Shown here one piece after another: positions 16,056-20,080 of a DNA stretch of 64,000 nt. Numbering within the stretch: the stretch's first letter is position 1; each line of letters begins with the position of its first letter. The notes under the pieces are model-generated. The model was not told where the DNA came from. It did not search any database and was given only the letters and a program-made list of their open reading frames with translations. This stretch comes from an uncultured delta proteobacterium (lineage in GTDB: Bacteria; Desulfobacterota; Binatia; UBA9968), in assembly GCA_963804165.1 (NCBI GenBank), contig CAWDPO010000043.1, forward strand, positions 192,001 through 256,000, in the 5' to 3' direction. A program made the translations under genes and the position numbers.

Positions 16056-16344
16056 TACCCAGCTCGGTAAAATGAGACTCATTACCATGTTCTGCGTCGC
16101 GGCCCTCGGGTCGGACGGTGGTCTCGGCGACAATTGGCGCGGCCACATTCTCGGGCGACGCGTCGGCAATCCAAAGCTCCACCACCGCGTCCGGCGGGAG
16201 AGCGATGCGCTCGCGGTAAGCCACGGACCCAGTGACCACGCCTGCGCCGGTGGAAGTCAGGGAGTTATACGTGCACCCAGAAAAGCCCGTGAGGATGAGC
16301 CACAGCAGCCCGAGCATCGGGCGCGGCGAATAAAGTTTCATCAT
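16048..16344 (-). pseudogene. YbaY-family lipoprotein, C-terminally truncated
   Basis: Lipobox FSGC, then VTGSVAYRERIALPPDAVVEL...IVAETT..EGR; similarity ends after EGR. Confidence 0.6.
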
Positions 16345-16381
16345 GTCATGCTCCGTTGCCCGGGGGGTCGCGGACGAAGCG

Positions 16382-17065
16382 TCAAAACGCCGCGTTCGCG
16401 GCGCCGCGAAAATCAGACGGTTCCGGCTGCTGCTTCTTTCGCGCGCTGTTTCGAGCTTTTTGGTGATTCATGTCGGCCGGAATGAAGCGAACCTTTTTTC
16501 CTAACCGCTTTGCTGAGATGAGCTCATCCCGAGCCACTTCCCCGCCGCCGATACCGACGATGATGTCGCTGTTTTCGACCATGGCTTTGGAGGTCGGCGA
16601 TAATTCCTTGGTTCCGCCTACGAATCCGCCCCAAGTCGTGTCCTCCACGTAAAAAACGTGATCAACGAAAGGCGATAGCTTGACATTGTGCCCTCTTGCC
16701 TGAGACGACACGATTCCCGTCGTCATGAAGCCTTTCCGTTTCGCCATTTCATAGATCGCGCCGATGCCTTCCGGCGTAGCGCCGATGTTCACGATGGTTT
16801 TGGCCGGGTCAAATTCGCCGAGAATGACCTCCGCGTGTTTGCGCAGCAAAACGTCATCCTCGTATCCGGCGCCCGAATACCCGACAAAGGTAAGTACGGT
16901 TTTCCCTGTGCCTTTGAAGAACGCCTTGATGTCTTGTTTGACCGCATTTTTGACCGTGGCGGTGTGCGCCGGGCCAGCAGCAGCAAGAACGAAGAGACAC
17001 AGATACAGAGGGAAAAACGGCGTGCCGGAAAAACGCAATGATTGGCCGTGCTTTAATATCATCAA
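16382..17065 (-). CDS. Putative exported SLOG-superfamily (LOG/DprA-like) protein
   Basis: Signal-like N-terminus; LTFVGYSG, NIGATPEGI, SKAMVENSDIIVGIGGGEVARDELISAKRLGKKV. Confidence 0.6.
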   Translation of the reverse strand: MMILKHGQSLRFSGTPFFPLYLCLFVLAAAGPAHTATVKNAVKQDIKAFFKGTGKTVLTFVGYSGAGYEDDVLLRKHAEVILGEFDPAKTIVNIGATPEGIGAIYEMAKRKGFMTTGIVSSQARGHNVKLSPFVDHVFYVEDTTWGGFVGGTKELSPTSKAMVENSDIIVGIGGGEVARDELISAKRLGKKVRFIPADMNHQKARNSARKKQQPEPSDFRGAANAAF

Positions 17066-17211
17066 GCGATCCCCTTCTATTCACGTTCTCGCACGAAAAG
17101 CTGTGTGGCCAAACGCCCCGCATCAGTGAACCACAGCACGCGATTGATAACGCAGGCGCGTGCCTAAGCACCAGGCGGAAGCACGTTGGGTCTCAGCCGC
17201 ATGAGATCGAC

Positions 17212-17637
17212 CTACTTCGACATCGGGCGCGATTCGACCGGGATGAGCGTTGTCTCTACTGGCTGCCCGGGATTGTTGCTTCTGATCTTGAACTCGCCCG
17301 CGCTCAATCGAAGTATTTCGGCCTTGTAGGAGAGACCCTCCTCGACCATCGTCAGCGCTCCACCCTCGTACTTCCAAGTCCCGAGCGTAGGCTTGGTATT
17401 AGGTGACGTGATGAGCAGCGTTCCCTCTGACAGGAATACATAAAGCGTGCCCGCCGCTACGCCGGACGAACTGCTCACTTGCCAGACCTTGTTGACGAAA
17501 CCGGCGGAAGCGCTACCGGCGTGGTCAAAATCCTGCTTTGCCGCGTCACCTTTATTGAGGCAAGCACCGAGACACAGAGCAAACGTAAAAATCAGGGTGG
17601 ACTTTGGAAATTTGATGTTGAGCCGCCTAGATTGCAC
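17212..17637 (-). CDS. Hypothetical lipoprotein
   Basis: Lipobox LGAC; beta-rich mature part (VNKVWQV..YVFLSEGTLLI..GTWKY). Confidence 0.7.
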   Translation of the reverse strand: MQSRRLNIKFPKSTLIFTFALCLGACLNKGDAAKQDFDHAGSASAGFVNKVWQVSSSSGVAAGTLYVFLSEGTLLITSPNTKPTLGTWKYEGGALTMVEEGLSYKAEILRLSAGEFKIRSNNPGQPVETTLIPVESRPMSK

Positions 17638-17778
17638 GGAAATAATACTAGCTTATCTCACCGTCACACTGGACGCGCGCTTTGCTCGACTACCACGCCT
17701 GAGCCAACGTGCCGAAAGTCACGTCGGATTCCCAGCGGCAGCCCCGGTTCGTCCGTTATCGACATTCTCCGTCGATCA

Positions 17779-18012
17779 CTAAAGACCTAGTAATTCCATT
17801 ATCTTGACTTGGTCGAAACCGACCACCGATTGGCCGTCGATGATCGTTACCGGCGTGCTTTGAAATCCTTGATCGAGTAATTCCTTTAATGCCGCTTTAT
17901 CCGCCCGTACATTTTTCTCCACGAACTGAACGCCTTTTTGAGATAGAAACTCCACCTCTTTATGACACGGGCCTCACCCAGGTTGGGTATAAACAACGAC
18001 CGATTTAGCCAT
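17779..18012 (-). CDS. Glutaredoxin/NrdH-like selenoprotein (UxxC; in-frame UGA at 17974-17976)
   Basis: Hand translation MAKSVVVYTQPG-UGA-GPCHKEVEFLSQKGVQFVEKNVRADKAALKELLDQGFQSTPVTIIDGQSVVGFDQVKIMELLGL; GAGGAG RBS; the UGA occupies the first Cys position of CxxC. Confidence 0.88.
17940..17958 (-). promoter_or_regulatory. Putative bacterial SECIS hairpin
   Basis: mRNA GAGGUGGA-GUU-UCUAUCUC: 8-bp stem including two G-U pairs, loop starting GU, 23 nt after the UGA. Confidence 0.6.
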
Positions 18013-18068
18013 TCTTTCTCTCCTCTAATTTTTTTAAAGCTTAACACTTCGCCATAAAGCGCGCAAAA

Positions 18069-18105
18069 GTGACGCGTTCCCAGTTTAAAACTGGGAACGC
18101 GTCAC
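18069..18105. repeat. Perfect inverted repeat with 18-bp arms
   Basis: GTGACGCGTTCCCAGTTT-A-AAACTGGGAACGCGTCAC, between divergent genes. Confidence 0.9.
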
Positions 18106-18127
18106 CCTGAGCAACGCGAAGGGTCTC
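18101..18127 (+). repeat. REP-like element (GTCAyCCTGAGC..GCGAAGG.TCT type)
   Basis: GTCACCCTGAGCAACGCGAAGGGTCTC, overlapping the right arm of the palindrome. Confidence 0.6.
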
Positions 18128-18220
18128 GACTGAAATAGCGAGTAAATGCCCAAGGCCTTTCCGATTTGGTCCACGATCTTAAACAACGACCGATAAGCAT
18201 GCTAAGGTAAGCTTCATACG

Positions 18221-20080
18221 ATGCCGCATAGGGATCAATTCAAATTCAAGCTTAGATTTTTCCTCAGCGCTCTAACGCTTGGCCTGACGGTTTTCGCCGC
18301 TCTTTCAGGTTGGACCGATGAGCTGACCAACCGGGACTCGAGCGCGACCGAGGCGCTGGCGCGCCACGTGAAATTCCTATCCGCCGCTGAGCTTACCGGA
18401 CGGGGTGTCGATACTCCCGGGATCAAGCTCGCGAGAGACTATGTCGCCGCCGAATTCGCCAAATCCGGCTTGAAGCCGGGCGGCGATAACGGTAGCTTCC
18501 TGCAACCTTTCGATGTTGCCGTTGGCGTCACCGTAGTCGAGCCGACCAGCCTCACTCTTGGAACCGACGCTCCCCTCCAGCTAAACGAACAGTGGATTCC
18601 GCTTGGGCTATCGACATCCGACAAAATAGCGGCGGAGGTGGTTTTCGCCGGTTACGGGATCACGGCCAAGGACTACGGTTACGATGACTATGCGGGCATC
18701 GACGCCAAGGGCAAGATTATTTTAATGCTCCGCTACGAGCCGCCGCCTTCGGAGACTAAAAGCCCATTCAGAAAACTTCCCGACTATTCGACCCACGCGG
18801 CGCTGCGCAGCAAAGCCAATAACGCGCGGGATCATGGCGCGCTGGGCATGATCTTGGTCGATATGAGCGATTCGAGTCGTGAGAAACGTGAATTGATCTC
18901 GACGCAAAGTAGTTTATGGCGCGGCGGCAATCGCCTGACCGCCGCCCAGGTGAAGCGCCAGGTTATCGAAAAATGGCTCGCCGCCCGGGGAATTTCGCTT
19001 AGGTCGCTCAAAGAACAGATCGACACCAGCGGCAAACCCGCTTCAACGGCCATTCCCAACGCTATTGCCACCTTGCAAGTTAACTTGAGGGAAAATCGCC
19101 AGCACACAGACAATGTCGTCGGTATACTGCCCGGCGCGGATCCGACGCTGAGCGCCGAATCGATCGTCATCGGCGCCCACTATGATCACCTTGGATTGGG
19201 GCATTTTGGCGCGCGAGACTCGGCCTCGGAAGGGCAGGTTCATCCTGGCGCCGATGACAACGCGTCGGGAACCGCAGTGATTATCGACTTAGCCCGCCGC
19301 CTCAGCCTACTGGCGCACAAACCGGCCAGAACGATCGTATTCGTCGCATTCTCGGCCGAAGAGCTCGGTCTTTTCGGTTCGCGCCATTATGTCGATCATG
19401 CAGTGTCCATCTCGGCGATAAAGGCCATGATCAATTTGGATATGGTCGGACGCTTGCGCGACGACCGTGTAACCGTGTTTGGCACACGCTCAAGCACGGA
19501 TTTTAGCAAAACGGTGCTGGCCGGAGCTCAGCAATTGGGCCTCAAGATCGGCGAATCCGACGATGTCGGGCGCAGCGATCACATGTCCTTTTATAGCAAG
19601 AAAATTCCGGTGCTCCATTTCTTTACGGGCATCCACAATGACTATCACCGATCCACCGATACTTGGGAGAAACTTAACATCGACGGTATGGCAAAAGTCG
19701 GCGACCTTGTCATGCTGACTGCGTTGCAGATCGCCAATATTAAGGAACCGATCAATTTTGTCAGCCTGCCGGCACGCCCGCCGGCCGCGGGCGCCGCGGC
19801 GGGTCGAGGATTTCGCGTTTATCTCGGCACCATCCCTGACTACGGCGCACCGGCGGCGGGCGTACGACTTGCCGGAGTTTCCAGCGGCAGCCCGGCGGCG
19901 CTCGCCGGCTTGCAGGAAGGCGACGTAATCATTCGCTTGGCTGACAAAAAAATCGAAAATATCGAAGACCTGACTGGCGCTCTGAGCGACCGCAAAGCCG
20001 GCGACGAGGTCGAAATAGCGATTCTGCGCGCCGGTACGCCGCTCACGTTGAAAGCGACGTTGAAAAGTCGCGGTCAGTGA
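18221..20080 (+). CDS. M28 family metallopeptidase with PA and C-terminal PDZ domains
   Basis: GAHYDHLG, GADDNASG, AEELGLFGS, NLDMVG, RSDH, YHRSTD; PA insert VVFAGYGI; PDZ YLGTIPDY..GSPAALAGLQEGDVI. Confidence 0.93.
   Translation: MPHRDQFKFKLRFFLSALTLGLTVFAALSGWTDELTNRDSSATEALARHVKFLSAAELTGRGVDTPGIKLARDYVAAEFAKSGLKPGGDNGSFLQPFDVAVGVTVVEPTSLTLGTDAPLQLNEQWIPLGLSTSDKIAAEVVFAGYGITAKDYGYDDYAGIDAKGKIILMLRYEPPPSETKSPFRKLPDYSTHAALRSKANNARDHGALGMILVDMSDSSREKRELISTQSSLWRGGNRLTAAQVKRQVIEKWLAARGISLRSLKEQIDTSGKPASTAIPNAIATLQVNLRENRQHTDNVVGILPGADPTLSAESIVIGAHYDHLGLGHFGARDSASEGQVHPGADDNASGTAVIIDLARRLSLLAHKPARTIVFVAFSAEELGLFGSRHYVDHAVSISAIKAMINLDMVGRLRDDRVTVFGTRSSTDFSKTVLAGAQQLGLKIGESDDVGRSDHMSFYSKKIPVLHFFTGIHNDYHRSTDTWEKLNIDGMAKVGDLVMLTALQIANIKEPINFVSLPARPPAAGAAAGRGFRVYLGTIPDYGAPAAGVRLAGVSSGSPAALAGLQEGDVIIRLADKKIENIEDLTGALSDRKAGDEVEIAILRAGTPLTLKATLKSRGQ

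Follow-up and report, generated by a model that had tools for sequence, protein, structure and literature searches.

A glutaredoxin-like gene with a conserved in-frame TGA codon, a putative selenoprotein gene of an uncultured delta proteobacterium

Gene layout and fold family

The window analyzed here is a stretch of 64,000 nucleotides (nt) covering positions 192,001 to 256,000 of contig CAWDPO010000043.1 (G000:C43:192001-256000), and belongs to the genome of an uncultured delta proteobacterium assembled in 46 contigs (7.5 Mb, 81% complete). On its minus strand, between positions 18012 and 17779, it carries a small gene of the glutaredoxin family whose reading frame contains a single TGA codon in place of the first cysteine (Cys) of the redox motif. 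Most probably, this codon is decoded as selenocysteine (Sec, U) and the gene encodes a selenoprotein. The features of the locus are as follows:

18023-18020, minus strand: Shine-Dalgarno sequence GGAG, 7 nt before the ATG (sequence reading)
18012..17779, minus strand: coding sequence of the putative selenoprotein glutaredoxin, 77 codons plus TAG (translation with TGA read as U, Pfam PF00462, match to PDB 7c10)
18012-18010, minus strand: start codon ATG (sequence reading)
17976-17974, minus strand: in-frame TGA, codon 13, predicted Sec and first residue of the U-G-P-C redox motif (ortholog conservation and alignment with 7c10)
17967-17965, minus strand: codon 16, TGT, resolving Cys of the UxxC motif (invariant in the 49 distinct orthologue sequences)
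17958-17940, minus strand: upper hairpin of the putative selenocysteine insertion sequence (SECIS), 8-bp stem, GUU apical loop at 17950-17948 (folding, covariation and freezing of synonymous sites)
17779..17955, minus strand: open reading frame (ORF) of 58 amino acids (aa) starting at the GTG of codon 20 (mechanical ORF list and public gene calls)
17781-17779, minus strand: stop codon TAG (sequence reading)

When TGA is translated as U, the minus strand yields a product of 77 residues with one internal stop, MAKSVVVYTQPGUGPCHKEVEFLSQKGVQFVEKNVRADKAALKELLDQGFQSTPVTIIDGQSVVGFDQVKIMELLGL. The plus-strand reading of 17779-18012 gave stops only, which assigns the gene to the minus strand. A preliminary description of the locus, in which the strand was left unstated, had proposed a ribosome-binding site, an ATG and a 77-codon glutaredoxin-like frame whose sole internal stop stands in place of the first Cys of CxxC. 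Its coordinates were correct, all the motifs that it quoted were present, and the stop was confirmed as the TGA of codon 13 (UGPC). The ORF list holds only the part of the gene located after the TGA, i.e., the GTG-started 58-aa form. The GTG of codon 20 is directly abutted by AAAGAG, without spacer, whereas the ATG is preceded by a properly spaced GGAG.

The translated frame matched the Pfam Glutaredoxin domain PF00462 (E = 1.7e-12; 47.8 bits, gathering score 22.9), residues 5-63 covering profile positions 1-60 of 60, across the TGA. This match, which spans the TGA, is beyond chance, and the TGA recurs in each of the 50 related loci that were fetched. Among solved structures, an end-to-end match was obtained with PDB 7c10 (E = 2.8e-19, 41/77 identities on the printed midline, i.e., about 53%), in which residue 13 is aligned with the first Cys of a CPHC motif. 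This places a U-x-x-C active site after strand beta-1. The next-best solved relative was PDB 3zij, a glutaredoxin-fold “thioredoxin” with a CPPC motif (E = 9.3e-13). The score for the NrdH-redoxin model TIGR02194 was 49.9 bits for a cut-off of 85.75, and ribonucleotide reductase genes are not among the neighbors of the gene (peptidase, glutathione S-transferase or GST, short-chain dehydrogenase/reductase or SDR). The UXX-star models also stayed under their cut-offs, with 44.8 bits against 66 for NF041212 (the Sec here being residue 13 of 77), and 24.0 and 34.3 bits against 72 and 100 for NF041114 and NF041211, respectively.

Conservation of the TGA codon, RNA hairpin and decoding machinery

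The protein with Cys substituted for Sec was searched against 61 genomes, i.e., its own and 60 relatives distributed over three families and 11 genera. A match over at least 75 of the 77 residues, with 99 to 62% identity and exactly one TGA inside, was obtained in 53 of the 61. Of the other eight genomes, one (65% complete) gave no match and four gave only weak paralogue matches, while the last three showed a copy cut by a contig end with the TGA visible, a copy with an N-masked start, and a copy with the TGA but with indels. No orthologue among the 61 genomes had a Cys codon at position 13. In the fetched loci, which include that of the window, two paralogues and two (L040 and L049) whose genomes are unpublished, the TGA was codon 13 in 50 of 50 and lay within a U-x-x-C motif, this motif being UGPC, UPPC in a sister family, and UGAC, USAC or UGSC in paralogues. 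A named genome collection provided 53 loci, largely from the same species as the 61-genome set and hence not independent of it, with TGA at codon 13 in 48, a masked codon in one, and TGC or TGT in four distant loci (L121-L124). Nine more distant TGA loci came from other phyla (L111-L119), and the carriers include metagenome-assembled genomes (MAGs) labelled as Methylomirabilota, Armatimonadota and Planctomycetaceae. Besides, a true Cys occupies position 13 (PSCGPC and PSCVPC) in two public proteins with 78% (P0012) and 75% (P0014) identity. These Cys forms, together with the conserved TGA, thus constitute the classical Sec/Cys pair. Both kinds of homologue that the preliminary description had pointed to, with TGA at codon 13 (53 of 61 genomes) or with Cys (P0012, P0014 and L121-L124), were therefore recovered.

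In many relatives, a second glutaredoxin-like match was observed, with 30-40% identity and one TGA inside open frames of 250-300 aa (e.g., G015:C6:281898-282119 and G025:C36:93566-93784). It is probably a fused glutaredoxin-domain selenoprotein. The genome of the window has only a weak, stop-free counterpart of it.

The codons located before the TGA were then compared in 49 distinct orthologue sequences, L071 being left out on account of an indel. In codons 2-12, the amino acids are kept while synonymous positions vary freely, as illustrated by the use of four codons each for Ala2, Val5 and Gly12. This pattern indicates protein-level selection in the ATG frame, upstream of the supposed stop. 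It bears directly on the possibility that translation really starts at the GTG of codon 20 and yields a 58-aa protein, the upstream 19 codons being an untranslated leader or the remnant of a gene killed by a nonsense mutation. Such a reading would agree with the ORF finder and with many public calls, which give exactly the 58-aa form, sometimes with a Pfam Glutaredoxin match. However, it would leave the constraint on codons 2-12 without explanation, and the resulting protein would be deprived of strand beta-1 and of the entire redox motif. The well-spaced GGAG precedes the ATG and not the GTG. The sister family lacks a GTG at the place of codon 20 and its members are called as 47-aa forms instead, so that the truncated start is not conserved whereas the ATG frame is. 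Finally, a nonsense mutation would not have been retained across three families, in 53 of 61 genomes. A genuine 58-aa product is thus very unlikely.

Sec insertion is also supported by the RNA. A hairpin GAGGUGGA-GUU-UCUAUCUC was predicted at 17958-17940 by folding, with an 8-bp stem and a loop starting exactly 23 nt after the UGA, in agreement with the GU-starting loop noted in the preliminary description. Taken alone, this hairpin has an energy of -7.0 kcal/mol (z = -3.98), a stability reached by none of 200 dinucleotide shuffles. According to the legend of Fig. 2 in a 2026 review (PMC13188914), the bacterial SECIS (bSECIS) model consists of a loop of 3-9 nt, an upper stem of 4-16 bp and a G in the first two loop positions, located 16-37 nt from the UGA, with a minimum free energy of -7.5 kcal/mol or lower. 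The geometry of the hairpin falls within the limits for loop, stem, loop G and spacing, with a loop of 3 nt, a stem of 8 bp, G as the first loop base and a spacing of 23 nt. The bSECIS check that had been suggested for this locus is hence positive on its four geometric points and borderline for energy.

Evolutionary constraint on this helix was evaluated in an alignment of 50 sequences, 46 of them distinct (A1). The helix was paired in 99.7% of the cells over the distinct sequences, and two pairs showed compensatory changes, pair 26-36 being U-A in 24 sequences and A-U in 22, and pair 23-39 changing from A-U to C-G in one paralogue. Neither the covariation score nor the paired percentage was equalled in any of 500 shuffles. 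Sliding the helix partner by 1-3 columns decreased pairing from 88% to between 44% and 66%, and RNAalifold picked just the 8-bp helix. When distant Sec forms were added (A2, 22 sequences), C-G was found at pair 23-39 in four sequences. Three Armatimonadota-type copies have a different stem, GGUGAAGG-AGUU-CCUUCACC, which is displaced by one column and keeps the loop GU at the same place. Consistently, synonymous variation vanishes at codons 19-25, with GAG in 49/49, GAG in 49/49, TTT in 34/35, TCT in 49/49 and CAA in 48/49, whereas it is normal before and after these codons (49 sequences). TCT is one of six Ser codons, and the CTA/CTT alternation within this segment co-varies with the opposite strand. 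Among four Cys-form loci that were folded, three had no comparable hairpin and the fourth had a CGAA-loop hairpin at a different distance. On this comparative evidence, the hairpin is the predicted SECIS element of the gene.

The preliminary description had also supposed that the organism decodes Sec, to be verified by a search for selA, selB, selD and tRNA-Sec. All four were found, with selB split between frames. Profile searches located three adjacent genes on contig C16, all over their cut-offs, namely selA (610 bits), selB (357 bits) and selD (385 bits). A tRNA-Sec was detected on contig C24 (76 bits in Rfam for a gathering score of 47) and was also reported by ARAGORN as tRNA-SeC with anticodon tca; the tRNA search within the window gave none. 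The selD gene carries its own in-frame TGA (context VKAAG-U-AAKLG; L010, G000:C16). A hairpin is located 33 nt after this UGA, with a GUU triloop closed by A-U, i.e., the same A-GUU-U apex as in the glutaredoxin hairpin. This shared apex fits with one SelB reading both hairpins.

The TGA codon ends 13 of the 43 stop-to-stop frames of at least 250 codons in the window, including the Pfam-supported peptidase and NMT1-like neighbors. The genetic code is therefore standard. This argues against a decoding of the UGA as something other than Sec, either through the use of code 4 or 25 (Trp or Gly) throughout the genome or through read-through by a near-cognate tRNA (Trp or Cys). Public 77-aa entries with W or G at position 13 would be in line with such decoding, although they reflect code 4 or 25 being chosen by pipelines for short contigs. 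Besides, selA, selB, selD and tRNA-Sec are present, leaky read-through fails to explain a conserved hairpin with frozen synonymous sites, and position 13 holds the catalytic Cys/Sec of the fold, so that a Trp or Gly residue there would leave the protein inactive. Altogether, non-Sec decoding is highly improbable.

Independent sequence data at the locus consisted of assembled contigs from four public runs, not raw reads. None of the public runs held half or more of the words of the stretch, the best shares being 0.32 and 0.30. A first DNA contig, X2, covers 17888-18150 with 0 differences and may come from the source sample. A DNA contig from another study, X3, covers 17940-18103 with one difference, which is not listed at the TGA. 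These contigs bear on the last alternative, in which the TGA would be a sequencing or assembly error for a true TGC or TGT, a codon that the preliminary description had proposed to look for in reads. The assembly does contain apparent frameshifts in selB, in a gene resembling thioredoxin reductase (G000:C11:24785-25679, three pieces in different frames) and in msrA (G000:C1:67903-68351, two pieces in different frames), but these errors are indels and not substitutions. Moreover, this TGA recurs in all of the 50 loci from other assemblies, and the contigs of two studies list no difference at the site. An error at the TGA is thus effectively refuted.

Interpretation, genomic surroundings and annotation

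From these results, we consider that the gene encodes a 77-residue glutaredoxin-fold thiol/selenol-disulfide oxidoreductase with a catalytic Sec at UGA codon 13, with a probability of about 0.93. Several observations weigh against this interpretation. Regarding the RNA, the segment comprising the UGA and 43 nt folds at -10.0 kcal/mol with a z of only -1.0. The energy limit of -7.5 kcal/mol is reached with the flanks (-10.0) and narrowly missed by the hairpin alone (-7.0), so that the choice of segment matters. The covariation reflects few independent events. A lower helix joining the region after the UGA to AAAGGC (columns 8-13 with 44-49) was considered and rejected, being paired in only 72.5% and not chosen by RNAalifold, and the Rfam scan of the window at gathering score returned no family. 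Regarding the protein, no NCBIfam model reached its curated cut-off, the best being TIGR02196 (YruB family) with 69.5 bits for 88.55. The public 77-aa entries P0004 and P0009 have R or L at position 13. In a relative, a decayed second copy (L133, G012:C313:29380-29720) shows frameshifts, a degraded hairpin and CGA as its codon 13; an intact TGA copy is kept in the genome of L133. As for expression, the only RNA-library contig, X20 (17782-17993), has 13 differences and ends 17 nt beyond the TGA. It belongs to a relative, and attests neither the transcription of the present gene nor, with certainty, the letter at the TGA; RNA libraries can contain DNA. Finally, selB is divided here into two ORFs whose frames differ, one of 423 aa and the other of 177 aa (G000:C16, L001:830-2610). 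Its C-terminal part is a single open frame of 625-660 aa in the five same-genus genomes searched (5/5). Because selB is intact in these relatives and the thioredoxin reductase-like gene and msrA are likewise frameshifted, the split is likely an assembly indel, a real lesion being the alternative.

Sec insertion, the redox role and a function similar to that of the clostridial glutaredoxin 7c10 are what we infer from the frame, the fold family, the machinery, the conservation of the TGA and the constraint on the hairpin. Following the established bacterial pathway, SelD would provide selenophosphate and SelA would convert Ser-tRNA-Sec to Sec-tRNA-Sec. SelB-GTP would carry the latter and bind the apical GU loop of the hairpin 23 nt downstream, so that Sec would be inserted instead of release when the ribosome reaches the UGA. 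The product would then cycle between a selenolate/thiol form and an intramolecular selenenylsulfide U13-C16, electrons being passed to oxidized protein or low-molecular-weight substrates. The genome contains candidate genes for two reducing systems, a thioredoxin reductase (410 bits) and a glutathione synthetase (389 bits). Since both are present, gene content does not decide the reductant.

The neighborhood of the gene was then considered. In the window and its close relatives, the conserved neighbors are a divergent M28 peptidase-PDZ gene and a GST gene (29 and 30 of 39 loci, respectively), followed by an SDR gene and an NMT1-like gene. This arrangement reflects synteny among close kin, not an operon, and distant loci do not show it. 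In the window, the downstream SDR and NMT1-like genes are intact and lie further away. About 1.7 kb (16056-17778) separates the glutaredoxin stop from the SDR gene, and the ORFs of 141, 227 and 111 aa tested in this stretch had no Pfam match; in the relative L072, the SDR gene is immediately downstream of the glutaredoxin gene. The 1.7-kb stretch could be an insertion or a decayed gene.

Upstream, a scan of 17000-18400 for promoters and terminators detected no terminator, and its single promoter-like site was on the wrong strand. A perfect palindrome of 37 nt (18069-18105; 18-nt arms and one central base) is located 56 nt upstream of the ATG, between the divergent glutaredoxin and M28 peptidase genes, and occurs only once in the genome. 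When the 215 nt preceding the gene were checked in 28 related loci, none of the 28 contained it. In the closest relative, G020 (L132), the palindrome is present with mirrored G>A and C>T changes in the two arms, i.e., its symmetry is maintained. It could act as an operator or as an RNA hairpin in the 5' leader.

In loci from distant phyla, other thiol-redox genes lie directly after the Sec-glutaredoxin gene. A gene resembling the catalytic subunit (beta chain) of ferredoxin-thioredoxin reductase (FTR) is found 16-19 nt downstream in two loci (L118:2643-3065 and L119:3251-3670). Elsewhere, the Sec-glutaredoxin gene is followed by a DCC1-like oxidoreductase (L113:3370-3675), by a protein combining AhpC/TSA and DsbD_N (L114:3506-4270) or by a class-I pyridine nucleotide-disulfide oxidoreductase (L112:3726-4919). 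These neighbors support a redox-relay role in general, and suggest non-glutathione reductants in some lineages. A further proposal is that the clade forms a distinct, always-Sec glutaredoxin-fold subfamily with a thioredoxin-type motif (UGPC/UPPC), possibly non-glutathione reductants, and genes systematically hidden by gene callers. It would extend from Deltaproteobacteria- or Syntrophobacter-labelled lineages of soil and sediment to MAGs labelled as Methylomirabilota, Armatimonadota and Planctomycetaceae. Under this proposal, the lack of any reversion to Cys among the orthologues of the 61 genomes would suggest that Sec is indispensable for the particular substrate of the protein. We regard this proposal as doubtful. 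If true, the FTR-like neighbor in the two distant loci would point to a ferredoxin-driven selenoprotein redox relay. In the genome of the window (81% complete), a search for an FTR-like partner (PF02943) found none.

Automatic gene callers usually shorten selenoprotein genes. A search of a protein collection gave 462 relatives of the query. Among the best 120 of the 462, on which the following results are based, most were 58-aa forms, several of them named “glutaredoxin” or “glutaredoxin 3”, and one (P0021) was 100% identical to the 58-aa ORF of the window. Reading of 19 full-length entries (77-95 aa) showed W at position 13 in 14, Cys in two, and G, R and L in one each. The W entries correspond to TGA translated as Trp (NCBI table 4) and the G entry to TGA translated as Gly (NCBI table 25). 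Those found among P0002-P0020 come from short metagenome contigs. Apparently, a selenoprotein gene on a short contig can tip the caller's choice of genetic code. The sister family is represented only by 47-aa pieces and a few W forms, some under the name “hypothetical protein”. U-bearing records cannot be found by identity in the collection searched, and correct Sec annotation may exist elsewhere (e.g., RefSeq). The preliminary description had assumed that the gene would be unannotated or called a pseudogene, which is roughly right; the collection shows in addition the 58-aa call as “glutaredoxin 3” or an entry with W or G at position 13.

Within this collection, the gene appears only in three wrong forms, i.e., as truncated 58- or 47-aa fragments without active site, as proteins with W or G at the Sec position, or as “hypothetical protein”. 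As a consequence of these mis-called forms, the selenoproteome and the redox inventories of these lineages are undercounted. The clean RNA signature, i.e., frozen synonymous sites over an exact 8-bp hairpin and an apex shared with selD, makes the gene a possible training or benchmark case for SECIS detection. The biological gain is modest, a well-supported Sec-glutaredoxin clade of uncultured soil and sediment bacteria joining a catalogued and biochemically studied family.

Comparison with known systems

The closest known system is glutaredoxin-1 (cGrx1) from Clostridium (Alkaliphilus) oremlandii, whose structures are PDB 7c10, 7c12 and 7c13. According to PMC7642778, 7c10 is natively a selenoprotein and has a U(C)PXC motif, its catalytic Sec having been exchanged for Cys to allow structural work. 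That paper proposes that it acts as the reductant of the selenoprotein MsrA and that glutathione reduces it back. The protein from the window has the same length, the same fold and the same position 13 for the Sec/Cys of U-x-x-C. It also shares with cGrx1 the N-terminus MAK.V.VYT, the cis-Pro region and the C-terminus VVGFD...ELLGL. The two proteins differ by their motifs, UPHC in cGrx1 and UGPC here (UPPC in the sister family and ULFC in the Armatimonadota-labelled copies), and by their hosts, a clostridium for cGrx1 and uncultured soil and sediment MAGs labelled as Deltaproteobacteria or Syntrophobacter for the present protein. The “tandem Sec” pairing with MsrA proposed for cGrx1 was considered and rejected here, the msrA match in this genome having no in-frame TGA.

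More generally, glutaredoxin selenoproteins are already catalogued in prokaryotes. Table 1 of the 2026 review (PMC13188914) has an entry “Glutaredoxin (Grx), PF00462, UxxC, 1 Sec” in its set of experimentally verified families, with a reference to Kim et al. (2011), and the 2006 survey (PMC1794560) names Geobacter sulfurreducens, Alkaliphilus metalliredigenes and Moorella thermoacetica as carriers of glutaredoxin selenoproteins. The protein from the window has the same PF00462 domain and the same UxxC motif as this family. Its resemblance to 3zij and 3zit lies in the patterns VYTQP-C-PPC and STP...DG..V.GF (3zij), the motif of the sister family here being UPPC. However, 3zij, 3zit and the YruB family (TIGR02196, below cut-off) are Cys proteins, unlike the protein from the window. 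3zij is presumably reduced by thioredoxin reductase, not by glutathione. NrdH-redoxin and the UXX-star selenoproteins are also small glutaredoxin-fold proteins, but they gave weak profile matches with scores far below the cut-offs. In UXX-star proteins, to judge from their names and from the table of PMC13188914, the Sec is near the C-terminus, whereas it occupies the N-terminal active site here. Hence, the gene is an added member of the already catalogued Sec-glutaredoxin (UxxC) kind.

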